Under the pieces are notes generated by a model that did not search any database, was not told the origin of the DNA, and was given only the letters and a program-made list of their open reading frames with translations. The position numbers and the translations under genes were made by a program. From positions 14,190-78,189 of IMG/VR virus record IMGVR_UViG_3300010388_000318: a stretch of DNA of 64,000 bases. One strand, given 5' to 3'. Positions 12,437-55,904 of this stretch are shown here, piece by piece (the first letter of the stretch is position 1; every line of letters starts with the position of its first letter). The stretch is from a virus (taxonomy: Duplodnaviria > Heunggongvirae > Uroviricota > Caudoviricetes).

Positions 12437-14491
12437 TTAAAATTGTAACACAAGCTTGACAACTTCTGTCTGATTAGCTGCACGTGTGATTGGGTTTAGA
12501 TTTTCCAAATAGAGAATTTCTCCACTGTCTGGGATCAATTCTCCGTTATATTTATTAGACACAATAAAGTACGAATTTGAAGTCATACCCTTAATCGTAC
12601 CATCAGAATTCTGGCTTGCAGTGAGGAAAGAATTCTTGACATTGGTTACATACATGGTATCATCAAGACCACCAACACTATCTACAATAGAATGGAAGAA
12701 TGCTTGTGGCTGTGAGAAACCTTCTACGCTTTCTTGTACAACAATTTCATCTTCGATAAATCCAGCTTGACTTACACTACCAACAAACTTGGTAAGCTGA
12801 TTGAAACCGCTAAATTCGTCTGCATCTCTTTCGTTGATGAATACGAATGGACGAGCAACTGTATTAGCAGCCGCTGTACAGAATGATTCCGAACCAATGA
12901 TGTTTGAGCCGATACTTAGATTTCTGGCTGCTACATTTGTCATGTTCAATTGGTTCAATGTGTATGATGTAACTTTACCGTATAGATCAGTTTCTACTAG
13001 AGTGATTGCACAGTTTGATGCAACAAATGTTGATGGCGATGTTACCTTCAATACGTTGTTCGCAGCAATTTCAGAAACAGTAGCAAAGAAGTTATCGAAA
13101 CCATTATTGATGATGATCTTGTCATTTACTCTCAATGCTTCTTCGAAGTTTACGCCAGAAGAGTAAACAACGTTATTTGCGGTTATTTGTACAGAACCAG
13201 ATAGCTTGATTGGCTTATAGCGATATACATCCTCACCAATAATAAACTGTCCAACAGTCTTTGACGTGTCCAGTAGTACAGTAACATTGGCATAGAGTGG
13301 GTCTTTGATAACGCCAAGTGTTCTATAATCATTACTTATTGAGAGTGGTGTTTCATCACCAATCAAGAAAGTATTGATGCCAACATATCTTGCATACAAT
13401 TCATTATTTACATTTAATCCATGACCGCCCTCTGGTGAAAGAATAACTCTCAGTGAAGCGTCAATAGTGACAGGCACAATATTATCTACCTGAATAGTAG
13501 CAATAGCAGAACGATATCCAGAACCAGCATTTAGGATTTCAACCTTGCTAATCGAATTCGCACTGGTAGGATCAATGATAGCACGAGCATAGCATGTAGT
13601 AGTACTTGTTCCGCTTGTGTCATATACGAATACGTTTGGATAGATTTCATACGTATCACCCGGCTTCACTACACCATTAAAGCTGCTTTCCAGTGTGATG
13701 ATCTTTTTATTTCTTTCCACATCAAATTCATAGTCTGTGATAACTCTGAACTGATTGGCTGCTTCACCAGATGTAATTTTTATAATACATCCGTTGTAGA
13801 AATTGTCAAGGCTTGACGCACTTAGTCCGATACCGTATAATAGAGAGTTCTCACCAATACGAACGCTTTCAAACTCACCTTCTGGAATATAGTTGTCGTA
13901 TCCTCTACCGCTATCGTCAATGCTGATAACATCGATAGAACCAGCAGACGCACCAGCAGTAACAGCAGGATCAATCACGACAGGCATATAGTCAACTGTT
14001 GCAAACTTAATCATAGTGTATTCGTCAACAGAGAACATGTACTTCCAGATATACCCATCACTTGGTGTTTCGAATGGATCGATATCTGTACCGTATGGTT
14101 CGACAGTTGACTTAGCGCCGTAGTTGTTGAACAGGCACTTGTAGACATAGATGAATGTGCCTGAGTTAACGGCAACATAGAATTTCTTATCAGACAAACC
14201 ACTATCGATATCATCGTACATATCATAGACAGTATCAACTGTCCAATCATAACGACGAATCATATTGGTCACATCATTGTACTTGACTCTCTTACCAAAG
14301 ATCATATCATTGTAAACATCGATCTGTGCTTTGGTCGTGTCTGATGGCATAGGAATGATGGAATCCCCATTTGCATACGGTGTATGCTTCGCAGTAAATA
14401 CGTAGTAGCTTGAATCCCTTTGTACACTAAGTACAAATGATTCGGCTGCTTCGACATTAAGTTTTTTCGTGGCGATTTGTTTTGTGCTCAT
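12437..14491 (-). CDS. baseplate/structural protein (684 aa)
   Basis: Intact ORF between the gp7-like and 1473-aa genes. Confidence 0.5.
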   Translation of the reverse strand: MSTKQIATKKLNVEAAESFVLSVQRDSSYYVFTAKHTPYANGDSIIPMPSDTTKAQIDVYNDMIFGKRVKYNDVTNMIRRYDWTVDTVYDMYDDIDSGLSDKKFYVAVNSGTFIYVYKCLFNNYGAKSTVEPYGTDIDPFETPSDGYIWKYMFSVDEYTMIKFATVDYMPVVIDPAVTAGASAGSIDVISIDDSGRGYDNYIPEGEFESVRIGENSLLYGIGLSASSLDNFYNGCIIKITSGEAANQFRVITDYEFDVERNKKIITLESSFNGVVKPGDTYEIYPNVFVYDTSGTSTTTCYARAIIDPTSANSISKVEILNAGSGYRSAIATIQVDNIVPVTIDASLRVILSPEGGHGLNVNNELYARYVGINTFLIGDETPLSISNDYRTLGVIKDPLYANVTVLLDTSKTVGQFIIGEDVYRYKPIKLSGSVQITANNVVYSSGVNFEEALRVNDKIIINNGFDNFFATVSEIAANNVLKVTSPSTFVASNCAITLVETDLYGKVTSYTLNQLNMTNVAARNLSIGSNIIGSESFCTAAANTVARPFVFINERDADEFSGFNQLTKFVGSVSQAGFIEDEIVVQESVEGFSQPQAFFHSIVDSVGGLDDTMYVTNVKNSFLTASQNSDGTIKGMTSNSYFIVSNKYNGELIPDSGEILYLENLNPITRAANQTEVVKLVLQF

Positions 14492-17889: not shown

Positions 17890-19677
17890 TTATGCCCTGA
17901 CAGCGACTGCGGTGATTTCAACGTCTTCTTCGATAATATTTAGGATAACATTATTGATGGTTGAAATGTCTTTGTTCTTTGGTGCAGCGTAAATCTTGAT
18001 GCCAGCACCAACATACGAATCAATTTTGAAATTAGAAAACTGTAGCAATCCACTATCATAATCGATCACGCCAACAGTTTCAATGAACTGACCAGTTGAC
18101 GCAGAATATACCTGAATGGAGCTAATGCCATCATCCTTCAGTACAGCCTTATTGCCCTTGTAATTAAACACGGTTGATGATATAGAATATCCTAGTCCAT
18201 CTGAGCCATAAATGATACCCAATGGAATACGGAAATTAACGTCAAATGTCAACAGCGTTCCTGTCTCAGGTGTGATAACTTTGATGATGCTGATATTGGT
18301 TTCATTGGAGATGATAGATGACTGTGAATTGTCAATAGCCTGTATCATCTTTGAATAGCGGAAGATACGATTGAAGTTATTCAAGTTAAGCTGTGCATAA
18401 TCGATGATAGCAGACTTTGTGATTGTCTTGATATCTTCGCTTGACAGACGAGTAACATTTACGTTATAGTTAACAATTGAATTGACTTGAATGTATGTGT
18501 ACTCAGGATCAACAAACACTGGATCAATTGAAACTGGTGAACGTGGCTTCAAGAAGTTATAGTACTGATCAATCTTTACCTGTGGAAGGCTGTCAAGCTC
18601 ATTAAGATCAACAGCAACAAACACCTTACCAAACTGTGGTGGGTCAAGGTTCTCACCGCCGTATGCAGTAACAGCATTGACTTCAGGGAAGTTAATTCTC
18701 AATAGTGTTTCATAGTCTTCTGTGGTGATCGCACGTTCCTGTGTATTAAAGTGACGTGGAGCATTATACTTAATTGATTCGAGTGTTTCACTGATCGCAC
18801 CACCAGTAGAAAGTTCATTGGTAGTAACTGTGATATCTGTTTCGTCATCAATTGCCGCATCTGGTGTAAATACTCTACATCCATTTGGTAGCTCACCGTT
18901 AGATATACGATATTCTACTGTAATGACTGAGTTGTTCTTTGGCTTTCTGCCATTGATGCCGTCACCGAAAACAATTTCATAACTATCGTTCTCAGCACCT
19001 TGCACAAAGAATACAGGTGAAGAAGAATTAATATCAAATAGTGATTGTGCTCTATTGTAAGATAGGATTGTTGAACCCATATCTTCTGTTACTGTAACAG
19101 TTATAGATGAAATGTCAACATTTTTATTTGAAATGATGAAACGTTGTGGCGATGAAGATGAATACGTATAGGTGTCCGCTACGTAATATCCTTCGTAGAT
19201 AGGAATATTTGTGCCAGTAAATGTTAGTTGTGTTCTATTGCTGTTAATGGTATAATCAGAGATGATAATATTTTCAGCAGTAGAGAAGGTAAAGCTACTA
19301 GCACCAAAACGTGAGGTGAAAGTATAACCCTTAGGAACAACGAGTGAACGCTTGTTTAAGACAGAACTATTGACTGTAATATTTACATTGGCTTGTGAAG
19401 ACTTGAACGAGCGAGGAACATAATTGAGTTCCTTGGCATGTGATACTACACTGTCACGAAGCTGAGCAGAGTCGAGGAACATTTCGCTGCCTACCATGTT
19501 TAAGTAGAATGCGTTATGGAATGTATTATATGATAGAACGTCAAGCAACACAGACATGTTACTGCCATCAAAATCATAATCTTTAAATCTATCTTGTGTT
19601 TTTAGATACGTCTTGAACGTATTCTTGATCGTATCAAAGTCAAGACTTGATAGAATAATTGAAGAGTTAGCTGACAT
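17890..19677 (-). CDS. 6: baseplate wedge protein gp6 homolog
   Basis: N-terminus FKDYDFDGSNMSVLLDVLSYNTFHNAFY and LRDSVVSHAKELNYVP align with T4 gp6 (FLDYDFEGSRLNVLCDLLAYNTLY, LRSSVVQAAQDNGYLP). Confidence 0.7.
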   Translation of the reverse strand: MSANSSIILSSLDFDTIKNTFKTYLKTQDRFKDYDFDGSNMSVLLDVLSYNTFHNAFYLNMVGSEMFLDSAQLRDSVVSHAKELNYVPRSFKSSQANVNITVNSSVLNKRSLVVPKGYTFTSRFGASSFTFSTAENIIISDYTINSNRTQLTFTGTNIPIYEGYYVADTYTYSSSSPQRFIISNKNVDISSITVTVTEDMGSTILSYNRAQSLFDINSSSPVFFVQGAENDSYEIVFGDGINGRKPKNNSVITVEYRISNGELPNGCRVFTPDAAIDDETDITVTTNELSTGGAISETLESIKYNAPRHFNTQERAITTEDYETLLRINFPEVNAVTAYGGENLDPPQFGKVFVAVDLNELDSLPQVKIDQYYNFLKPRSPVSIDPVFVDPEYTYIQVNSIVNYNVNVTRLSSEDIKTITKSAIIDYAQLNLNNFNRIFRYSKMIQAIDNSQSSIISNETNISIIKVITPETGTLLTFDVNFRIPLGIIYGSDGLGYSISSTVFNYKGNKAVLKDDGISSIQVYSASTGQFIETVGVIDYDSGLLQFSNFKIDSYVGAGIKIYAAPKNKDISTINNVILNIIEEDVEITAVAVRA

Positions 19678-38072: not shown

Positions 38073-38581
38073 TTACACTTCTGTAGTGCTTTTTCTTTTG
38101 CCTCTACAAGCGTATTGAAGGATTTAGACGTACCACCAGCATCAGGGTGATATACCAAAGACATTTTACGGAATGCCTTCTCTACAGCAGTCCTGTCATT
38201 CGTAGGCATCATACCAAGCACGTGCCAGATAGATGATGCAGTCTTCTCTACGATCTTTTCACGCACTGTTGTAGGAAGGTTCAGACGATGGATAGAAAGA
38301 TAGTTGTCCTTTCTCCTACCGTCCTTTGTTCTCATAGTGAGAGTGATCATCTCACCATTATCGCTCTGTGTGAACGAAAGATCAGGCCATACAAACTCTG
38401 GTTCTTTGTGATTGAACATTAAGAACGCAAAAGTCATAATCATGGCCATAATGAAAAACATGAAGCCAGATTGTGGAAACATGAAGTGGGTAAAAGCAAG
38501 AAGGGGAGCAAACCCCATACCAATAAGATATGATTTCATTTCACAAATCCTCATAATAAAGTGGTGGGATTCTGTTTCCAC
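38069..38581 (-). CDS. membrane-anchored J-domain (DnaJ-like) protein
   Basis: C-terminal KAFRKMSLVYHPDAGGTSKSFNTLVEAKEKALQK has the HPD J-domain motif; N-terminal hydrophobic helices. The true start is probably an internal Met (MKSYLIG...). Confidence 0.55.
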   Translation of the reverse strand: METESHHFIMRICEMKSYLIGMGFAPLLAFTHFMFPQSGFMFFIMAMIMTFAFLMFNHKEPEFVWPDLSFTQSDNGEMITLTMRTKDGRRKDNYLSIHRLNLPTTVREKIVEKTASSIWHVLGMMPTNDRTAVEKAFRKMSLVYHPDAGGTSKSFNTLVEAKEKALQKCK

Positions 38582-38916
38582 GCTCCCACCGGGCGCATTT
38601 GAATTAAGCCGCTAGGGCGAATTCAACAGAGCTATTGTCGTTAGCTGCATTTACGTTTTGTGGCGCTTTGCCAGTCAATCAGTCTCGAACCGCCTTATTC
38701 CGTTCCAGTCGATCCTAGTTCACCCCCATCATAGACACTGGTCATCAGTTTCTGTTTCCCATTCTAGAAACTGCCTCTAACGCATCATGGGAATGTGCGC
38801 CAGTGTCTATGGTGGAGGTGACGGGTACTGCCCCCGTGTCCTCAGAACCTTTATTGTTGATCGTCAACAACTGATAACTCTATTTAGTATGATTCGTTTC
38901 TCAAGTCAACTCTTTT

Positions 38917-40309: not shown

Positions 40310-40387
40310 TGGTGCTCTGTGTGGGATTCGAACCCACGACGACAGAATTTTAGAGATTCCCGCTCTGACCAACTGAGCTAACAAAGC
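40310..40387 (-). tRNA. tRNA with anticodon CUA (amber-suppressor type); CCA encoded
   Basis: Minus-strand cloverleaf: GCTTTGT-TA-GCTC-AGTTGGTCA-GAGC-G-GGAAT-[CTCTAAA]-ATTCT-GTCGTC-GTGGG-TTCGAAT-CCCAC-ACAGAGC-A-CCA. U33 and A37 present; anticodon C34-U35-A36. Confidence 0.6.
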
Positions 40388-40584: not shown

Positions 40585-40797
40585 TTACTCCATTCCTAGA
40601 TGTTCACGAAGTGCTTGTTCGTCGATATCGCTCATACCGATCATTGGCTTTGACCAATTGCAAATTTCCTGAACAAGAAGTTTGGCAAACACATCAAGAT
40701 CAAACTCCCAATAAAGGTGTCCTCTGACCTTTGCTCTATCTTCAATCTCTTTAAGAGTCACAATCCAACCCCTTGGTTGAACTTCTTGATGAACCAA
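40585..40797 (-). CDS. hypothetical small protein (70 aa)
   Basis: Small ORF; overlaps the ligase gene end. Confidence 0.3.
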   Translation of the reverse strand: MVHQEVQPRGWIVTLKEIEDRAKVRGHLYWEFDLDVFAKLLVQEICNWSKPMIGMSDIDEQALREHLGME

Positions 40798-41813
40798 GGA
40801 CGTGCTTCGTTAGCAATTGCGCTACCAAGCTTCTTAGGATCGATCTGGCTAGCCACAATGGTATCCATCTCTTCCTTAAGAACGTCATTGTATACCCAAC
40901 GAATGAAGTCACCCATGCTCTTCATTTCAAAGGGCAGAAGCTGTTCACGTACTAGGTTGTCCAAGCCCTGTTCAAGACGTGCTTCAGTGACAGTTGCAGC
41001 GACGAAAGCCCTAATGTTTTCGACAGCCTCAACATCCACAGCAGCGAGAGTACGTACCTTTGAAACAGAATGCTTTTCACCCTTGACCTTAAACCAAGTA
41101 CCGGAGTCATTCCATCCTTCAGATACACATGTCCATACAACGCCTTCACCGATTCCAGAGACCCCGAAATACTTTCCAACTGGACATTCATTTTCAACTG
41201 CCTCTGTAATTTCGATCATCTTGTTCTGAGCAATCTCAGGGAACTTGAAGTCGATATCTGCTTCCCAAGTTGGGAATGTGTCGATGTTGAATACACCATC
41301 TTCAGGAAGATGGATATCAAACTCACCAACAGGCAACCAATGAGTAGTATCATCAGAGAGGACAGCCTTGACAGCAAACACAACAAACATCTTAGGAAGT
41401 TGTGAAAGTGCAACACCCTTCTGAATACCACTACCACACCATTCGCCAAAGATGGCGATCTTCTTGATGGGTACGTGAGGAATCCAGATTTCGCTCATAG
41501 CCTGATTGACAACATCACGCCAAATAGATTCATTCTTCATTTGATGAAGCATGAAACCAGCGTTATCCTGTGTCAAAGACAGCACACGCTCACGAGACTG
41601 AAATGTGAAGCTATCAGTGTCAACATCATACACGATACCAGCATTGGTACCATGAAGCTTTACAGTGCCACGAAACTTCAGTGTAGGGAGAGGCTTAGAT
41701 GCATCATAGATAGCATCGCCATTCTCATCCTTACCAGCGTAACGGGTGTGTGTTTGTACGTGACGAATCACATTACGAAATTGTTCAACGCTAGGAAATT
41801 TAATCATTTTCAC
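40758..41813 (-). CDS. RNA ligase, Rnl2 family
   Basis: Motif I KFRGTVKLHGTNAGI (KxHGxN, as T4 Rnl2 EKIHGTNFS); nucleotidyltransferase-like layout; located near tRNA genes. Confidence 0.6.
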   Translation of the reverse strand: MKMIKFPSVEQFRNVIRHVQTHTRYAGKDENGDAIYDASKPLPTLKFRGTVKLHGTNAGIVYDVDTDSFTFQSRERVLSLTQDNAGFMLHQMKNESIWRDVVNQAMSEIWIPHVPIKKIAIFGEWCGSGIQKGVALSQLPKMFVVFAVKAVLSDDTTHWLPVGEFDIHLPEDGVFNIDTFPTWEADIDFKFPEIAQNKMIEITEAVENECPVGKYFGVSGIGEGVVWTCVSEGWNDSGTWFKVKGEKHSVSKVRTLAAVDVEAVENIRAFVAATVTEARLEQGLDNLVREQLLPFEMKSMGDFIRWVYNDVLKEEMDTIVASQIDPKKLGSAIANEARPWFIKKFNQGVGL

Positions 41814-42804: not shown

Positions 42805-43348
42805 TCAAAGCAGCATCAGTTGAAACAACCCCAAGGCCATGTGAATGCGGGAAGTTCAGCTTAGGAAGGTCAATCTCATTGAAGAAACGACCAACGTCAT
42901 CAGGGAATGAGTATGTGTCATGGAACATGATCAGTCCACCTTCACGGACAAACGGACTCCAAGTCTTATAATCATTGCTCACTGCATCATAGATATGATA
43001 TCCATCAATGTGAAGAATGTCGATAGGCTTATCCCATGTCTTGGCTAGCTCATTGAAGTCTGCCTTGATGATTTCCACATTATCAAACTGATAGGTGTTC
43101 TTGAAACCAACTACCTTGTCATAGGCATTACGGAAACCAGCATTGGCATCACCTTCGAACCAATCAACACCATAAACAGTGCCGATTTCATCCAGAGCAA
43201 ATGCGAATGTCGAGAAACCATAGTCAACGCCAAGGTCAACAGTAGTTGTTGGCTGTAGACGATTGACAGCCCAACGAGCAAAATCGAAGTGACCTGTCCA
43301 TGCAGATAGAATGTTCTTCACTGCATAAATTTTAGCGTTCTTATCCAT
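42770..43348 (-). CDS. class I SAM-dependent O-methyltransferase (CmcI/Methyltransf_24-like), likely sugar-modifying
   Basis: [14 protein letters not shown] ... [13 protein letters not shown] ... GGLIMFHDT pattern; last gene of the rml operon, overlapping rmlB. Confidence 0.55.
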
Positions 43349-44378
43349 TACCTAATCTTTCTCCAAAATATTTCTTATTGCGTAGTGGTTTCCACCACCA
43401 TTCATTTTCTAGATACCAATCAATAGTCTTTTCTAGACCAGTTTCAAATGATTCTTGTGCATTCCAATTAAGCTCATTCTCAATCTTTGAAGGATCAATA
43501 GCATAGCGACGATCATGACCGGGCCTATCCTTCACCATCCTAATCAAATCATGGCGATATACTCCATCATTCATCTTCTTGTCAACAATGGTGCAAATCG
43601 CCTGTACGACCTCTAAGTTGGTGCGCTCTTCACGACCACCAATGCAATATGTTTCACCGACTTCACCATAGATTGCGGCCCTTACCAGTGCTCTTGCATG
43701 ATCATCCACATAAAGCCAATCACGAACATTCTCACCAGTTCCATACACTGGCAGTTCTTTTCCTTCAATCGCATTAAGAATGTTCAAAGGAATAAGCTTC
43801 TCAGGGAAGTGATATGGACCATAGTTGTTAGAGCAATTCGTCACGATGACAGGAAGACCATATGTTTCATGCCATGCCCTCACAAAGTGATCAGACGAAG
43901 CCTTAGAGGCTGAATATGGCGAACTAGGTGCATATGATGTTGCCTCAGTAAACACACCACTATCAAATGGCAAGTCACCAAACACTTCATCAGTTGAAAC
44001 GTGATGTAAAACAAAAAGATTATTTTTTGATTTCCAATAGTGCAGACATGCCTCTAGAAGCTTATACGTACCAACCACGTTTGTATGGATGAAAGCAAAA
44101 GGATTATCGATTGAACGATCAACATGACTTTCAGCAGCCAAGTTCATACAGATATCAATATTATGACCATCAAGTGTCATGGCCATAAGGTTCTCATTGG
44201 CAATATCACCATGCACAAAAACAAAGCGTTCATTGTTTACAATGTCACGAAGAGAATCCATGTTACCAGCATATGTTAGCTTGTCATAGCATACGACATA
44301 ATGTCCCTCTTGGATCAATAGGCGACATACAGCAGAACCAATGAAGCCAGCACCGCCTGTTACTAGAAACCTTATCAT
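43341..44378 (-). CDS. rmlB: dTDP-glucose 4,6-dehydratase
   Basis: [21 protein letters not shown] Rossmann motif, [11 protein letters not shown] catalytic YxxxK, 345 aa typical length. Confidence 0.85.
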
Positions 44379-44905
44379 AATACAATATCCTTGAATAGTG
44401 GTGCGGCTGCATCTTTCTCAGAGATTTCTGATGCTCCTAGAAACGCCCAATCAATGTTAAGATCAGGATCATTCCAAAGGATGGAACCTTCACTTTCCTT
44501 GTTATACACATTGTCTACCTTATAGACCACAACAGCATTAGATGTTAGTGTCATAAAGCCATGGGCAAACCCCTTGGGAATAAATAGCTGCCTAGCATTA
44601 TCTGAAGATAGCACAGCACAAACATGTTGTCCATATGTAGGTGATTCTGGACGAATGTCTACAGCAACATCAAGGATCGATCCCCATGCACAACGAACTA
44701 GCTTTGTCTGTGCGTATATTCCACGTTGAAAGTGAAGACCACGTACAGTACCTATCTTATACGAAATACTTTGATTGTCTTGTACCCAACGAGGCATCTG
44801 CAAATGATCAACATAAACTTCTGAGAATACGCCTCTGTCATCCTTGAATTGAGTAGGCTGTATAATCAACACACCATCAATATGCGTATAATTAAAAGAA
44901 GTCAT
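44375..44905 (-). CDS. rmlC: dTDP-4-dehydrorhamnose 3,5-epimerase
   Basis: 176 aa cupin; [40 protein letters not shown] motifs typical of RmlC. Confidence 0.8.
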
Positions 44906-45773
44906 CGTGATTTGCTTTCTTCACCAGATACGCACCATAATCAGTCTTGCTAAACATTTTTGCACGTTCTAGCACCTGTTCCTGACTCATCCAACCATTG
45001 TTATAGGCAATTTCTTCAAGACATGCAATCTTCATACCCTGCCTACGTTCAATCGTACCAACGAATGAGCTAGCTTCCAATAGGCTTTCATGGGTACCAG
45101 TGTCAAGCCATGCATAGCCATAACCAAGCTTCTCAACACGTAGCTGTTGATTGTCTAGATAAATCTGGTTAACGTCTGTGATTTCAAGCTCACCACGACC
45201 AGAAGGCTTAATCGACTTTGCGATATCCACAACATCATTGGTGTAGAAGTACAGACCAGTTACAGCCCAATTTGACTTAGGCTTTGAAGGCTTCTCAACG
45301 ATAGAGTTTGGACGGCCCTTCTTATCGAAACCAACAACACCGTAGCGTTCTGGATCATCAACATGATAGGCAAAGACGGTTGACTTTCCAAGAGGGAAAC
45401 AACGTGCAGTCTGTAGCTTGTCCCATAGACCATTACCATGATAGATGTTATCACCAAGGATCAAGGCAACATCATCACCACCAATAAACTCTTCACCAAT
45501 CAGGAATGCTTCAGCAATACCTGCGGGAATTTCTTGTTCTGCATAAGTGATCTTGATACCATATTGCGAACCATCACCTAGAAGGTTCTGGAATGCAATC
45601 TTATCACGTGGCATGACGATAATCAAGATATCACTAATACCCGCTTGCATCAGTGTAGCAAGCGGGTAGTAGATCATTGGCTTATCATATACCGGAAGTA
45701 GTTGTTTTGAAATGCTTAGGGTAGCGGGATACAACCTTGTCCCGTTACCAGCGGCCATGATAATGCCCTTCAT
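44892..45773 (-). CDS. rmlA: glucose-1-phosphate thymidylyltransferase
   Basis: [38 protein letters not shown] is the canonical RmlA N-terminus; 293 aa. Confidence 0.85.
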
Positions 45774-45783
45774 AGTGTCTCCA

Positions 45784-46164
45784 TTAGATAATCAAAAGAT
45801 ATGCGATCAGTATATATGTCAGAGAATGAATCAGTTGATCAAATCCCATCAAAATCCAAAATTCATTGTGTGTGTTGGCACCCCAGCCCTTCTTCTTATT
45901 ATACCACATCTTGAACCAGTCCATATGATAATGGATCAAAAATTCAACAACAGCGATCACTCCTGCAATCGGAAATGTGGTGAATAGAAGAAGAATAAAA
46001 AATGTAGCAATACTATGACCGCCTGAGTGGAAGATGCCACCAATATGACCATATGTACCTTTGTTCTGCCACATAAACGGCGGCTGATACAAAAAGTCAA
46101 GAATAAAATGCTTTACTGTCAAAAGCAGCAAAACAAGCAAAATAGCATTAGCTGTCATATTCAA
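45784..46164 (-). CDS. small integral membrane protein with His-cluster motifs (126 aa)
   Basis: Three to four hydrophobic helices; [12 protein letters not shown] and HYHMDW His motifs. Function unknown. Confidence 0.35.
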
Positions 46165-46765
46165 TTCCTAGCGAATCATACAGAGTGGAAATCCACTTGT
46201 TTGCACCATCGTTACGTTCACGTTCCTTAAGAAGCTCAGTCTCGTGATACGTAACATCCTTGTATGCATGTTCCAAAGCTTCTTTGTACTTATCAAGGGG
46301 ATTAGCCTTGCTAAGCGCAGTGAGACGTTCCATGGCATACTTGGTGTCACAGTCATGTCTGATTGATTCGATGATTTGTTCGATCATGAACTTCTTGAGG
46401 TTTTCATGGTCGGGTGTTGGCGGGAACCAGTTGTATGCCTTTTCAAGCATAGCATCATACTTGTTCCTTAGAGAAACTTTCTTGTTGAAATATTCTTGAT
46501 TTGAAGCAGTTTCTTCTGCAATTACCTGCTTACCATAAGCAGTGCGATCATTCACACCCCTCATTGCTTCAAGCTTGGCAACTTCAGCCTTTGCACGAGA
46601 AAGAGCATCAATATGATAGCTACCTTCAATGCCACGAAGCTTTGGCTTTTCTTTACTAGAATTGTCACGCTGATGCAAACATGCACCAAATGCACGTGCA
46701 CAACCTAGAATGTAGTCTTCAAAAGTGATATCATTCTCAATATCAGCAGTGTATCCTGTAGGCAT
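46148..46765 (-). CDS. hypothetical protein (205 aa)
   Basis: Intact ORF; first gene after the tRNA at 46785. Confidence 0.4.
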   Translation of the reverse strand: MPTGYTADIENDITFEDYILGCARAFGACLHQRDNSSKEKPKLRGIEGSYHIDALSRAKAEVAKLEAMRGVNDRTAYGKQVIAEETASNQEYFNKKVSLRNKYDAMLEKAYNWFPPTPDHENLKKFMIEQIIESIRHDCDTKYAMERLTALSKANPLDKYKEALEHAYKDVTYHETELLKERERNDGANKWISTLYDSLGIEYDS

Positions 46766-46784: not shown

Positions 46785-46860
46785 TGGTAGGGATAGCGAG
46801 ATTCGAACTCGCACTGAAGAGATTTTAAGTCTCCTGCCTCTGCCTATTGGGCTATATCCC
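46785..46860 (-). tRNA. class I (short variable arm) tRNA with anticodon UAA (Leu codon UUA); G1-U72, A73, CCA encoded
   Basis: GGGGATA-TA-GCCC-AATAGGCAG-AGGC-A-GGAGA-[CTTAAAA]-TCTCT-TCAGT-GCGAG-TTCGAAT-CTCGC-TATCCCT-A-CCA. Confidence 0.55.
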
Positions 46861-46864
46861 CATA

Positions 46865-47083
46865 TTAAAACATATTAACAATTCTCAGAGTATTGGTAGT
46901 GCTTGTGAAGTATGACACGTTGTCTTCGAACCTATCAATCTCATAATCTATCAATACTCCATATTGACTTTCAAGGTCTTCTGTAAAGTTATCGATATTA
47001 CCGATCATGAAGTCAAATAAGTCTTCCACGTTTTGGAACATATACCTGCAATTGTCAATATGAAACAGATAATATTCCTGCAT
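46865..47083 (-). CDS. hypothetical small protein (72 aa)
   Basis: Intact small ORF. Confidence 0.3.
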   Translation of the reverse strand: MQEYYLFHIDNCRYMFQNVEDLFDFMIGNIDNFTEDLESQYGVLIDYEIDRFEDNVSYFTSTTNTLRIVNMF

Positions 47084-47449: not shown

Positions 47450-48379
47450 ATGATGCAAAGTTTTAAGAAATTTTTGGAAGAATCTAAGTTCAACAAAGGG
47501 ACTATCATCTTTGCTGAGCCTGTCCATGGTAGCCACTCTAAGCCACCACAACAGCCAAAGCTTATTGATAAAGAACCTGTGCATGGTAAGCATTCTAAGC
47601 CAGTAGGCAAGCTCAAGGAAGATCGTGAAAATCTTTATAATCTTGATAAGGACGGCAATCAACACATAAAAGACTTTATTCGTAAAAACCCTAATAAACA
47701 TCTTGGGGATGATTCTTTTGAAGCGCATCTAACTCTAGACCCAACACGTGAGCATTTTGAAAAAAATCCTCATCATGCATCGCTGAAAAAATATTCAAAG
47801 CAATCATGGGATACCAATAAAGAGTTGATTAATAAGGCTTCAGGAAAGCCTTCTTTATTTGAACCAAAGATTCATGACTCAAAAACAGATATTGAATATA
47901 AGAATGAAAACGCTCAGATTCATAAAGAGCATGTTAATAGTCTAGACGCATCTTTTCATCATCCAAATGCTGTCTTACAACATGACGTGCATGTGTTTCA
48001 TGGAACCAATAAGTTCAATCCCGGTGAAGAAGCCAAGAAGGGTAGCGGTAGAATTACCATACCAACATATCTGTCAACATCGATTGATCCTAGAACAGCA
48101 CATGATTTTGCTGGTACTACTGAGGATTCTCATATCATTCATCTGCACCTTAAGAAGGGACAGAGAGCACATTATCTTGGAAGCCATTCAAACTTTGATA
48201 GTGAAAAGGAAGTGATGCTTCCTAGAAACTCAACACTACAAATTCATCCGACACCAACAGTTACACATAATGGTGATGGAACAAAGACACACATCTGGCA
48301 TGGCCATGTTGTTGGCGAAGCACACCCTGCTCCACGTAGACAAGAACACGACAAAGACCAATTGAAATTTAATTTCTAA
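47450..48379 (+). CDS. capsid-targeted ADP-ribosyltransferase-like protein (Alt-like injected effector), paralog 1
   Basis: N-terminus MMQSFKKFLEES resembles the T4 capsid-targeting sequence MKTYQEFIAE. NAD-binding-type motifs VFHGTN, YLSTS and EKEV; repeats PVHG(S/K)HSKP. Confidence 0.5.
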   Translation: MMQSFKKFLEESKFNKGTIIFAEPVHGSHSKPPQQPKLIDKEPVHGKHSKPVGKLKEDRENLYNLDKDGNQHIKDFIRKNPNKHLGDDSFEAHLTLDPTREHFEKNPHHASLKKYSKQSWDTNKELINKASGKPSLFEPKIHDSKTDIEYKNENAQIHKEHVNSLDASFHHPNAVLQHDVHVFHGTNKFNPGEEAKKGSGRITIPTYLSTSIDPRTAHDFAGTTEDSHIIHLHLKKGQRAHYLGSHSNFDSEKEVMLPRNSTLQIHPTPTVTHNGDGTKTHIWHGHVVGEAHPAPRRQEHDKDQLKFNF

Positions 48380-48389
48380 GGATAATAAG

Positions 48390-49343
48390 ATGAAAACATT
48401 TAAACAATTTATAGAATCAGAAAAAGTGCATACTCCTTCTCAGGAAAAACATTCCAAAAAGTATGTTGAGCCACCTATTGCTAATTATATTCCTTCACAT
48501 GGAAAGCATTCTATTGAAAAAAAATATGTAAAGAATTCTATTGAAAAAAAGTATGTTGAGCCACCTATTGCTAATTATACTCCTTCACATGGAAAGCATT
48601 CTGTACAGGAAGCCAAACTTCCTGAGACGATGGGTCATAAAGAATTTGAATCACACAACCCAAACCCTAAAATTCATCCTACTGTTACGGGTGTGCACGA
48701 GCATCTTGATCCACCAGAAGAAAAATGGAATAGATCACTAAGAAAACATGAAAGAGAAGCTGTTGCAGAATATACAGCATCAAGTGCTAGTACAAATCAT
48801 GAGCTTCTTGAAACTTCTAAGGGAAATCCTTCAAACTTTGAACATAAGCCAGAAGATAGTGCTTGGGATAAAGATTGGAAGGATGGTAATAAAGCAAGAC
48901 ACCATAAAATATTAAAGGGTCTAGACAGTGTTTTGAATAGATCGAGAGTGCCAAGAAACCTTACAGTGTATCATGGTATCAATGCCAAATCAAGTGAGAC
49001 ATTCAACCCCGGCGAACTTGCAAGTCAACATCCCGATAGACACATTAGAATGCCAGCATTTATATCAACTAGTGTCGATCCTGCTATTTCGTCTAGTTTT
49101 GCAAGACCGGAAAAGTGGGAAGGAACTGTAAAAAAACCCACTATCACACACATGCTTCGTATTAATTTAAAGCGTGGACAAAAAGGTTATAGATATGTCG
49201 GTGAACGCTCTTCAATTGCTGCTGAGCGTGAAGGTATTATAAGAAGAAACACTGTATTGAAAATTAGTGAGCACCCCACAGTAGTGCATCATCCAGAAAC
49301 TGGTGGACACATTCATGTGTGGGATGCTCACTTAGTTGATTAA
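48390..49343 (+). CDS. capsid-targeted ADP-ribosyltransferase-like protein, paralog 2
   Basis: N-terminus MKTFKQFIESE; VYHGIN, FISTS and AEREGI motifs collinear with paralog 1; internal 54-bp tandem duplication (48461-48514 and 48549-48602). Confidence 0.5.
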   Translation: MKTFKQFIESEKVHTPSQEKHSKKYVEPPIANYIPSHGKHSIEKKYVKNSIEKKYVEPPIANYTPSHGKHSVQEAKLPETMGHKEFESHNPNPKIHPTVTGVHEHLDPPEEKWNRSLRKHEREAVAEYTASSASTNHELLETSKGNPSNFEHKPEDSAWDKDWKDGNKARHHKILKGLDSVLNRSRVPRNLTVYHGINAKSSETFNPGELASQHPDRHIRMPAFISTSVDPAISSSFARPEKWEGTVKKPTITHMLRINLKRGQKGYRYVGERSSIAAEREGIIRRNTVLKISEHPTVVHHPETGGHIHVWDAHLVD

Positions 49344-54605: not shown

Positions 54606-55520
54606 TTAATCTCTTTTGTCGTTCTTATCGCCATCAATGAGTTTCAAACCATATTCATTGATTTGATTCTGTGGGATAAAACTTGCTTTCCTCTTTAACT
54701 GATTATTCTTAAAAGGACTATAGTCCACATGATGATGCCAGCGATTGAACTTCCATACAACAGATGCCACATCAGGATATGTATCTGCTAGCATCTTAGA
54801 CTTAGCAAGAGTGCCTTCAACTTCATAGAAGTCTTTGCTGTTGCCGCCGCCCATACGTTGAGTAGTGACCTTACCTTGTAGGAAAGCATTCAACTGAATA
54901 GTCGCCCATCCAGCAGACAATGCATCCAAACACAAGATAGTATCTTCATTGTAACGACCACGCCATTTGAATGGTATGTCATTACGAATAAGAAGGCAAG
55001 AGTAAATTCTTGTGTTCAATGTATATGGTCTAGCTTTAGCATCACTCTTACAAAAAGAATAATAGTTGAAGCCAGCAATCGCTAGGTTTTCATACCTGTC
55101 AACGAAATCCTCAGTCGCTACAAAGTTAACATTTGTCCTCATAGGAGTCTTCATGTTTCTATTTAGACGATGGAAGTCATCAAGATTGTCATCAAGAACC
55201 CAATGCCATGCATGACCTTCAGATACAGAATGTTCCCATGCAAAGTTACGTGCAGGACCCGGTCCAGTACTCTTAGTCAATCCAAGATCATCAAGTACCT
55301 CATACTCTTCCTTGTACTTCTTAGGAAGGATTAGAAGCTTCTCAGCACCAACAACCTTAGCATATTCGTCAAACTCTTCTTCCTCTACGATAACCCTGAA
55401 AGGAACGCCAAGTCTATTCAGCGCCCTATTGGTTAGCATATTGGTATATCGACCTTTCGATACGATATACACAGGATAACGGTTTTCACGTCTATTCTTG
55501 TATCCAACGTTTTGCAGCAT
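54606..55520 (-). CDS. hypothetical protein (304 aa) with DxD-like WVLDDNLDD motif; possible nucleotide-sugar transferase
   Basis: Intact ORF. The glycosyltransferase call rests only on the DxD-like motif and the genomic context, so it is weak. Confidence 0.3.
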   Translation of the reverse strand: MLQNVGYKNRRENRYPVYIVSKGRYTNMLTNRALNRLGVPFRVIVEEEEFDEYAKVVGAEKLLILPKKYKEEYEVLDDLGLTKSTGPGPARNFAWEHSVSEGHAWHWVLDDNLDDFHRLNRNMKTPMRTNVNFVATEDFVDRYENLAIAGFNYYSFCKSDAKARPYTLNTRIYSCLLIRNDIPFKWRGRYNEDTILCLDALSAGWATIQLNAFLQGKVTTQRMGGGNSKDFYEVEGTLAKSKMLADTYPDVASVVWKFNRWHHHVDYSPFKNNQLKRKASFIPQNQINEYGLKLIDGDKNDKRD

Positions 55521-55826: not shown

Positions 55827-55904
55827 TGGTAGTCCTGACGAGATTCGAACTCGTACTATAAGCGGTTTTGAACCCCTCGCCTCTGCCAGTTGGGCTACAG
55901 GACC
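55827..55904 (-). tRNA. class I tRNA, anticodon most likely CAA (Leu codon UUG); one G.G mismatch in the anticodon stem; G1-U72, A73
   Basis: GGTCCTG-TA-GCCC-AACTGGCAGA-GGC-G-AGGGG-[TTCAAAA]-CCGCT-TATAG-TACGAG-TTCGAAT-CTCGT-CAGGACT-A-CCA. Paralogous to the tRNAs at 46785 and 63034. Confidence 0.45.

Follow-up and report, generated by a model that had tools for sequence, protein, structure and literature searches.

Three arm-less tRNAs of a T4-like phage belong to a widespread leucine tRNA family and are probably leucine decoders

A 64,000-nucleotide (nt) stretch of the Caudoviricetes record IMGVR_UViG_3300010388_000318 (positions 14,190 to 78,189; hereafter the window) encodes three transfer RNAs (tRNAs) that carry the leucine anticodons UAA, CAA, and UAG and have no long variable arm. 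This locus raises the question of what these tRNAs are. A preliminary description, made from the DNA letters alone, had offered three possibilities: compact leucine tRNAs, mis-sense or recoding agents charged with another amino acid, or evolutionary intermediates toward stop-codon suppressors. That interpretation was partly supported. The genes exist, fold as cloverleaves under strong purifying selection, and belong to a family that is exclusive to leucine anticodons. With a probability of roughly 0.85, the trio represents functional phage-encoded type I (arm-less) tRNALeu, which would be charged by the host's own leucyl-tRNA synthetase (LeuRS) and act as decoders supplementing the leucine supply; leucylation by this host's LeuRS, expression, and the role in codon supplementation are the parts that we infer. 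The three genes add new members to a kind of tRNA that is known and very widespread but under-described:

46785-46861, minus strand: tRNA-Leu(UAA); anticodon at 46825-46827 (tta on the plus strand); variable loop UCAGU; G1.U72, A73, and encoded CCA.
55827-55904, minus strand: tRNA-Leu(CAA), 78 nt; anticodon at 55868-55870 (ttg on the plus strand); G1.U72, A73, and encoded CCA.
63034-63110, minus strand: tRNA-Leu(UAG); anticodon at 63074-63076 (cta on the plus strand); variable loop GUGUU; anticodon loop CUUAGAA (A37).

On the minus strand of the window, ARAGORN detected 17 tRNAs and one transfer-messenger RNA (tmRNA), and it detected none on the plus strand. Together with Rfam and a position-by-position parse, it confirmed three class I tRNAs with the D arm, G1.U72, A73, T arm, and CCA end that had been described. 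The anticodons called by ARAGORN were consistent with the alignments to Rfam and to a family covariance model (R1), and each lies in a 7-nt loop with U33. The end of the first gene, previously placed at 46860, was one base short, and G1 of tRNA-Leu(UAA) is at 46861. All three tRNAs were class I molecules of 77-78 nt including CCA, with variable loops of 5-6 nt and no extra arm, and canonical class II tRNALeu's long variable arm (a stem-loop of more than 10 nt) was not found in any of them. Scores against the general Rfam tRNA model RF00005 (gathering score 29) were 60.7 bits for tRNA-Leu(UAA), 57.8 bits for tRNA-Leu(UAG), and 45.6 bits for tRNA-Leu(CAA). The anticodon stem of tRNA-Leu(CAA) is irregular, with a G29.G41 mismatch and a 6-nt variable loop (UAUAGU) in the ARAGORN fold, and with a bulged G and a 5-nt loop (AUAGU) in the alternative fold given by the covariance model alignment. 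tRNA-Leu(UAA) is flanked by minus-strand open reading frames (ORFs) at 46148-46765 (19-nt spacer) and 46865-47083 (3-nt spacer), and tRNA-Leu(UAG) lies directly between tRNA-Arg(ACG) (62953-63029) and tRNA-Ile(GAU) (63112-63186).

The trio shares the D region GCCCAA(U/C)(A/U)GG(C/A)AGAGGC and the T arm xxGAG-UUCGAAU-CUCxx. The D-stem consists of three base pairs (bp; 10-25, C11-G24, and C12-G23) and is closed by a C13.A22 mismatch, and the D loop was parsed as A14 A15 Y W G18 G19 M A20a G21; all three tRNAs matched this D arm exactly. The core is thus A9, C12-G23, and C13.A22, and the class II core (G9, G12-C23, and G/A13.A22) was not found in the trio. U48 provides an A15-U48 Levitt pair, whereas most of the neighbouring tRNAs in the window have G15 and C48. 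The combination of a 3-bp D-stem, C13.A22, A14/A15, G18G19, A20a, U48, and A73 was unmatched by the other class I tRNAs of the window. The three genes had also been called paralogs. They do form one family, but they are not recent duplicates, because their pairwise identity (68-74%) hardly exceeds the background of 49-81% seen across all class I tRNAs there, and closer counterparts occur in other phages.

These features correspond to what LeuRS recognizes. The arm-independent identity elements of Escherichia coli LeuRS comprise A73, A14 (U8-A14), A15-U48, G18G19/A20a, and U54-A58 (PMC6614811; PMC9976931). Systematic evolution of ligands by exponential enrichment (SELEX) indicated that the A15-U48 pair is essential for E. 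coli LeuRS (PMC9976931), and with Aquifex LeuRS deletion of the arm chiefly raises the Michaelis constant (Km), whereas deletion of U48 abolishes charging. Seryl-tRNA synthetase (SerRS) and bacterial tyrosyl-tRNA synthetase (TyrRS) use the long arm, whereas LeuRS does not (PMC9976931). The set A73, U8-A14, A15-U48, G18G19, A20a, and U54-A58 was complete in all three tRNAs of the window. Since LeuRS recognizes neither the anticodon nor the arm, the host LeuRS should leucylate the trio. A search of 30 of the largest or tRNA-adjacent proteins predicted in the window revealed no aminoacyl-tRNA synthetase, LeuRS included, which would leave charging to the enzyme of the host. The earlier suggestion that these could be compact leucine tRNAs by virtue of A73 therefore gained support, both from the full arm-independent identity set and from the leucine-exclusive family described below.

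The G1.U72 wobble is no sign of an altered identity. In the structure of E. coli LeuRS with tRNALeu(UAA), the G1-U72 pair contacts the CP1 domain (Fan et al. 2019, PMC6614811). Of viral type I leucine tRNAs, 37% had the wobble, compared with 12% of the other class I tRNAs on their contigs (odds ratio 4.2, p = 8e-10); for viral class II leucine tRNAs the figure was 26%. The wobble is not exclusive to the trio, since tRNA-Lys(CUU) of the window (58374-58450, minus strand) also has G1.U72 and A73.

The identity elements also bear on the idea that the trio are mis-sense or recoding tRNAs, which would insert an amino acid other than leucine at UUA, UUG, and CUA. The absence of a class II arm would fit this idea, as would a close runner-up in a 2025 computational study of Shigella phage Sf14, a sister of Sf18 with a homologous UAG/CAA/UAA trio, a study that was silent on the missing arm; leucine had the highest tRNAscan-SE isotype score for each of the three homologs (Leu_TAG 67.4, Leu_CAA 49.1, and Leu_TAA 60.2), and for Leu_TAG the model Ile2 reached 65.7 vs. 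67.4 for leucine. However, the trio has the full leucine identity set and none of the alternative ones. There is no G3.U70 for alanyl-tRNA synthetase (AlaRS), as pairs 3-70 are G-C, U-A, and C-G, no long arm for SerRS, and no G-1/C73 for histidyl-tRNA synthetase (HisRS); the base 5' of G1 in tRNA-Leu(UAA) is U. Synthetases that read the anticodon would reject UAA, CAA, and UAG under the known identity rules (PMC9976931). Furthermore, the family spans six leucine anticodons and no others, and the standard code yields a coding density of 90%. Recoding by the trio is therefore very improbable.

The extent of the family was surveyed in phages, in IMG/VR, and in bacterial chromosomes. When the tRNAs were used as queries in a sensitive blastn search of 50,697 phage records, 321, 12, and 207 records were matched, and the best full-length matches were overwhelmingly genes of 76-79 nt annotated as tRNA-Leu in Felix O1-like and Moogle-like phages of Escherichia, Shigella, Salmonella, and Citrobacter, in the group of Erwinia phage phiEa21-4, and in phages of Acinetobacter, Pseudomonas, Vibrio, Mycobacterium, Gordonia, and Streptomyces. 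When tRNA-Leu(UAA) was compared by blast with approximately 1,370 tRNAs, 84 of its 85 matches were leucine tRNAs. No cultured phage with close DNA relatedness to the window was found, the matches being only of tRNA size. A search pattern was then composed of the motif CCCAAYWGGMAGAGG, derived from the Ounavirinae homologs, a spacer of 26-56 nt, and GTTCRA; a long arm was thus permitted, and A73 and U48 lay outside the pattern. In IMG/VR, this pattern was found at no fewer than 120 loci, and the spacing was that of class I (28-31 nt) in all 120 listed. ARAGORN identified 954 tRNAs at these listed viral loci, including 128 with the motif, all of 74-78 nt. Leucine anticodons were carried by 127 of the 128 (UAA 41, UAG 34, CAA 33, GAG 9, CAG 7, and AAG 3), and the remaining one had an aberrant loop (Fisher p = 7e-98 for the association of motif and leucine, against 739 non-leucine tRNAs).

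With one genome per species, the same pattern was found at 120 or more bacterial loci. Those listed were overwhelmingly from Actinomycetota, including Nocardia, Mycobacterium, Gordonia, Rhodococcus, Corynebacterium, Amycolatopsis, relatives of Arthrobacter, and others. Spacing was of class I in 119/120 of the listed bacterial loci, and all 122 motif-bearing tRNAs had leucine anticodons. The gene was the sole tRNA within 8 kilobases (kb) at 89/120 listed loci, which indicates that it is an ordinary chromosomal gene in Actinomycetota. The preliminary description had taken the long arm to be universal in bacterial tRNA-Leu, and a 2023 review of identity elements likewise describes the long arm of tRNALeu as present everywhere except in animal mitochondria (PMC9976931). 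This does not hold, given the arm-less genes in actinobacterial chromosomes and in Streptomyces coelicolor; the impression that such tRNAs are rare came from a textbook generalization that is still printed (PMC9976931) and is untrue. Replacement of a host tRNA-Leu by a phage tRNA-Leu has been reported in Actinobacteria. Across both parts of the survey, 249 of the 250 motif-bearing tRNAs had leucine anticodons, from both the UUR and the CUN boxes. One tRNA body with all six leucine anticodons and no others is what would be expected of a synthetase that ignores the anticodon, and LeuRS is such an enzyme. The family of the trio is old and widespread, in phages as well as in actinobacterial chromosomes. 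The CUN-reading members were split between G37 and A37.

The survey further addresses the relation of the trio to stop-codon suppressors, one candidate for which is encoded in the same array:

40310-40387, minus strand: amber-suppressor-type tRNA; anticodon CUA, labelled 'Pyl' by ARAGORN; canonical D arm, A73, and encoded CCA.

A single A35-to-U change in the UAA or the CAA tRNA would produce an ochre or amber suppressor that is still charged by LeuRS, and this, along with the presence of a suppressor tRNA in the array, could be taken as a sign that the trio are intermediates toward suppressors or relatives of them. However, their anticodons are not one transition from stop-reading ones, as had been stated; UAA to UUA and CAA to CUA are transversions, and UAG requires at least two changes. 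None of the 250 motif-bearing tRNAs at the listed viral and bacterial loci had a stop anticodon. Kinship of the CUA tRNA with the trio was rejected, as it has a 4-bp D-stem, G15, and C48, scored 47 bits with R1, and was closest to tRNA-Lys(CUU) and tRNA-Met among the window tRNAs. There was also no sign of stop-codon recoding. TAG ends 3/76 predicted genes of the window, and ORF coverage was 0.902 under the standard code and 0.921 with TAG as sense, with no meaningful gain under any alternative code. That the trio are intermediates toward suppressors or relatives of them is thus exceedingly unlikely. A related contig (L244, described below) also contains a CUA tRNA, of different sequence, at 19332-19407.

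Selection on the family was evident at two levels. Among 193 unique members of 74 nt, A73 was present in all 193, compared with 54% of other class I tRNAs on the same contigs, and A15-U48 in 191 (99%); U8-A14, G18, G19, and U54-A58 were invariant, and U33 and A35 were invariant in the family. In a gap-free alignment of 70 members, each less than 80% identical to the others, the cloverleaf register contained 98.3% standard pairs vs. 36-48% in slid registers. Double-sided changes occurred in 470 cells compared with 122 in shuffles, and none of 500 shuffles reached the observed value. The covariance model R1, which was built from these 70 sequences with the window excluded, gave 85.7 bits for tRNA-Leu(UAG), 84.4 bits (E 7e-28) for tRNA-Leu(UAA), and 77.2 bits for tRNA-Leu(CAA), and the next best tRNAs of the window, Phe and Arg, scored 58 bits.

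At shorter distance, two IMG/VR contigs (L243 and L244) encode a helicase that is 90% identical to that of the window. tRNA-Leu(UAG) adjoins tRNA-Arg(ACG) in both, and tRNA-Leu(CAA) is kept in L244. Among the orthologs, the anticodon stem of tRNA-Leu(UAG) was rewritten with full compensation (AUUGG/CCAAU, CUAGU/ACUAG, and UCUGG/CCAGA), and D-stem pair 11-24 changed from C-G to U-A in L243. The tRNA-Leu(CAA) ortholog of L244 showed compensated changes at 3-70, 4-69, 49-65, and 50-64. G1.U72, A73, A14, A15, U48, and C13.A22 were fixed. The anticodon loop of tRNA-Leu(UAG) also differed, being CUUAGAA (C32, A37, and A38) in the window and UUUAGGU (U32, G37, and U38) in L243 (2156-2232) and L244 (587-663). 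The loop UUUAGGU is typical of host tRNALeu(UAG) with m1G37. This difference could reflect avoidance of anticodon nucleases or a changed dependence on modification.

Several known systems resemble the trio in part. S. coelicolor tRNALeu(CAA), which is compared here by its reported features, is a type I tRNA with a 5-nt variable loop (ACAGC; the commonest in the family is ACAGU) and depends on U8-A14 (PMC6614811). It comes from Actinomycetota, the phylum in which the D-arm motif of the window is a common chromosomal gene. It is leucylated in vitro by the S. coelicolor enzyme (ScoLeuRS), and also by Streptomyces azureus LeuRS and human mitochondrial LeuRS, with the leucine-specific domain of LeuRS being decisive for charging (PMC6614811). 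In contrast to the trio, it has C48 and thus no A15-U48, and it is chromosomal. E. coli LeuRS does not charge it, and ScoLeuRS makes no use of A73 (PMC6614811), a base that the family keeps without exception. Fan et al. regarded Streptomyces LeuRS as the sole prokaryotic enzyme accepting both types and did not mention phages (PMC6614811), and among the literature searched the term 'type I tRNALeu' was met only there. No explicit description of a phage type I tRNALeu was found in the literature search.

Among phages, Shigella phage Sf18 (Ounavirinae) carries the same trio of UAG, CAA, and UAA in class I tRNAs of 77-79 nt. Three short tRNA-Leu genes also occur in Erwinia phage phiEa21-4, where one was called AAG instead of UAG. 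The Ounavirinae leucine tRNAs share the CCCAAYWGGMAGAGG D arm, A73, frequent G1.U72, and location in a large tRNA array, and tRNAscan-SE calls them tRNA-Leu. On the other hand, their hosts are Enterobacterales, the phage family is unrelated to this T4-like phage, and identity to the window trio is approximately 80%. Engineered minimalist E. coli tRNALeu without the variable arm, the anticodon arm, or both is aminoacylated and edited by E. coli LeuRS, provided that A73 and the tertiary contacts of the D and T loops are intact, according to the summary in PMC9976931; these features are conserved in the trio. These constructs, as summarized there, are artificial and derive from class II tRNA with its G12-C23/G13 core, whereas the core of the natural family is remodelled. 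Animal mitochondrial tRNALeu(UUR) is likewise class I, has no long arm, and takes its identity from A73 and A14 (PMC9976931). However, it is organellar and structurally degenerate, and ScoLeuRS does not charge it (PMC6614811); no sign was seen that it shares an ancestor with the family of phages and Actinobacteria.

The lineage of the trio has kept the tRNALeu-type D-loop (A14 A15 N N G18 G19 N A20a G21 A22), A15-U48, and A73, while exchanging the long arm for a loop of 5-6 nt and remodelling the core (A9, C12-G23, and C13.A22). The host LeuRS would charge the trio with leucine. In decoding, the UAA tRNA would read UUA and UUG, the CAA tRNA would read UUG, and the UAG tRNA would read CUA and CUG, as well as CUU with a modified U34. 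The window has a guanine-cytosine (GC) content of 40% and is approximately 90% coding under the standard code. Its leucine codons are CUU (37%), CUA (21%), UUG (17%), CUG (10%), UUA (8%), and CUC (6%), and GC at third codon positions (GC3) is 0.335. It encodes T4-type baseplate and tail proteins, and its baseplate wedge protein places it nearest, among cultured phages, to Caulobacter phage Cr30 (40% identity) and the Sinorhizobium phages phiM12, phiM7, and phiN3. The host is thus probably alphaproteobacterial, as judged by relatedness and in agreement with the type of tmRNA. If it is GC-rich, like Caulobacter or Sinorhizobium, the trio would represent isoacceptors that are in short supply in the host. 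The trio would then top up leucyl-tRNA in a 40% GC T4-like phage of a probably GC-rich alphaproteobacterial host. No tRNA was annotated in the first 50 kb of Cr30, nor was any detected there by ARAGORN. The tmRNA is as follows:

38513-38913, minus strand: tmRNA, circularly permuted and two-piece, of the alphaproteobacterial type; tag peptide AANDNSSVEFALAA; 97.5 bits with Rfam tmRNA_permuted and 88.5 bits with alpha_tmRNA.

This phage tmRNA is a hint that the host is alphaproteobacterial and that the phage interferes with ribosome rescue.

Several points weigh against reading the trio as functional leucine decoders. The anticodon stem of tRNA-Leu(CAA) is flawed, and its Rfam score is lower than those of the other two. 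tRNA-Leu(UAA) is absent from L244, whose locus spans that position, so that this tRNA is dispensable in that lineage and the complement varies among relatives. A copy of the family was absent from the 5,426 complete E. coli genomes searched. Reading of the commonest leucine codon, CUU (37%), would require broad wobble at U34 of the UAG tRNA. A modified U34 (cmo5U34) would extend the reading of this tRNA to CUU. The literature search yielded no aminoacylation or expression data for the trio or for any phage type I tRNALeu. Finally, E. coli LeuRS and one other Streptomyces LeuRS failed to charge S. coelicolor type I tRNALeu(CAA) in vitro (PMC6614811), and charging by a proteobacterial LeuRS is therefore not guaranteed. 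However, that substrate has C48 and not the U48 needed by E. coli LeuRS, which may explain the failure; since the trio and 99% of the family have U48, the negative result need not apply to them.

In the same direction, the trio might be charged poorly or not at all in the host and serve as decoys, persist as remnants of a mobile array, or need a phage factor encoded outside the window. The failure of E. coli LeuRS on a type I tRNALeu and the dependence on the leucine-specific domain would agree with this, as would the variable tRNA content of close relatives and the imperfect stem of tRNA-Leu(CAA). In addition, the window ends within the tRNA array, and other leucine tRNAs may lie beyond it. 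The array reaches the window end (64000), with the last gene at 63865-63937, and L243 has tRNA-Asn and tRNA-Glu(UUC) beyond tRNA-Leu(UAG); the window consequently does not show the complete tRNA complement of the phage, or tRNA-Leu genes that may lie further on. Nevertheless, this explanation is improbable. Compensatory evolution extends through all four helices, including the anticodon stem, A73, A15-U48, U33, and A35 are conserved, the anticodons are limited to the six of leucine, and virulent phages that infect Escherichia, Erwinia, Vibrio, Acinetobacter, and Pseudomonas have conserved the family, all of which points to selection for decoding. That the family is retained by virulent phages with Enterobacterales, Vibrio, Pseudomonas, and Acinetobacter as hosts also argues that proteobacterial LeuRS uses these tRNAs. 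Leucine decoding with charging by the host LeuRS hence remains the preferred reading.

The frequency of arm loss was estimated from an IMG/VR sample chosen only on a generic T-arm plus CCA pattern and not on the family motif. Class I molecules made up 25/70 (36%) of the tRNA-Leu genes in this sample, and 18/55 without the genes that triggered the pattern, whereas tRNA-Ser (45/45) and tRNA-Tyr (17/17) were all class II. Since SerRS and TyrRS need the arm and LeuRS does not, leucine is the one class II isotype that is free to lose it. A D-loop of the type A14A15-N(1-3)-G18G19-N-A20a-G21-A22 was found in 45% of viral class II tRNALeu, in none of 145 viral tRNA-Ser and tRNA-Tyr, and in 8% of other isotypes. 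Relative to the class II core, the arm-less family has A9 for G9, C12-G23 for G12-C23, and C13 for G/A13. A second kind of arm-less tRNA-Leu, with a class II-type D arm (such as GGCGGAAUUGGCAUACGC or GACGGAAUUGGUAUACGU) and a 5-nt loop such as AUUUU or GUUUU, was seen in IMG/VR loci L252, L265, L273, L277, L280, L334, and others. Class I leucine genes with a class II-like D arm suggest a second, independent lineage of arm loss.

This confinement of arm loss raises a further possibility, namely that the trio is leucylated but that its chief value is to resist host defences directed at tRNAs through the class II long arm. Nucleases or nucleotidyltransferase toxins that target this arm would neither recognize nor cut an arm-less tRNALeu, and translation would go on once the tRNALeu of the host had been inactivated. 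Septu and Retron-Eco7 cleave the variable loop of tRNATyr, and phage T5 tRNATyr escapes through its distinctive loop. AbiEii appears to prefer class II tRNAs, as deduced from size, and VapC52 cuts the variable region of tRNASer. Phage arm loss is confined to one class II isotype with a tolerant synthetase, seemingly in at least two structural subtypes; the anticodon loop of tRNA-Leu(UAG) differs from that of its orthologs (CUUAGAA vs. UUUAGGU); and the same region contains an RNA ligase gene (40758-41813), consistent with tRNA-damage pressure. T5 tRNATyr is comparable to the trio as a phage-encoded class II isotype in which an altered variable region changes the interaction with a host factor, but it keeps the long arm and its escape role has been demonstrated, while escape by an arm-less tRNALeu is a hypothesis only. 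On the other hand, the literature search turned up no defence system directed against tRNALeu or its arm, the precedents being for Tyr and Ser only; the same family is an ordinary chromosomal gene in Actinomycetota, where evasion is no obvious explanation; and the low-GC codon usage of the phage is already a sufficient reason for these anticodons. Defence evasion as the chief value of the trio is accordingly possible but unlikely. The broader proposal, in which arm loss is a recurrent phage adaptation against arm-recognizing defences, the lineage moved between phages and Actinomycetota, and proteobacterial LeuRS charges type I tRNALeu, is likewise doubtful; if true, such charging would contradict the published view that limits dual acceptance to Streptomyces LeuRS.

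Other genes and tRNA-like sequences of the region were as follows:

40758-41813, minus strand: RNA ligase gene (PF09414, E 2e-15), approximately 370 nt upstream of the CUA tRNA.
43341-45773 and 54606-55520, minus strand: deoxythymidine diphosphate (dTDP)-sugar and glycosyltransferase genes.
47450-49343, plus strand: two tandem ADP-ribosyltransferase genes (PF03496).
58739-59254, minus strand: ORF of 171 amino acids within the tRNA array.
62128-62199, minus strand: tRNA-like, found by Rfam only (33.6 bits) and missed by ARAGORN; UCC (Gly-like) anticodon and degenerate D arm.
63865-63937, minus strand: Gln/Glu-like tRNA body with an unusual anticodon loop (4-base anticodon 'cgaa' in ARAGORN) and no CCA.

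The RNA ligase, of which Cr30 also encodes examples, would fit T4-style tRNA repair against anticodon nucleases, by analogy. The ADP-ribosyltransferase genes lie on the opposite strand to their neighbours, immediately beside tRNA-Leu(UAA), and are reminiscent of T4 Alt and Mod. Scattered among the tRNAs are the dTDP-sugar genes (4,6-dehydratase-like, 3,5-epimerase, and nucleotidyltransferase) and a gene for a TET-associated glycosyltransferase (PF20691, E 2e-47), which suggest glycosylated hypermodified DNA bases. A superfamily 1 (SF1) helicase is also encoded in the tRNA neighbourhood. The ORF at 58739-59254 had a sub-threshold Pfam match to ArfA (23.7 bits, cutoff 25.5, residues 19-39); together with the tmRNA it suggests a theme of ribosome rescue, although the ArfA match may be due to chance. 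The two aberrant tRNA-like genes may be pseudogenes or unusual decoders.

Reading the three tRNAs as normal leucine decoders removes a suspected recoding system from the window. Arm-less tRNALeu is common, as it accounts for approximately one-third of phage tRNA-Leu genes in the sample selected without the motif and is routine in Actinomycetota. The survey contrasts with the 2023 review (PMC9976931) and with the 2019 study that treated Streptomyces as unique (PMC6614811). Furthermore, the family could supply compact, possibly orthogonal, LeuRS substrates for the engineering of the genetic code.

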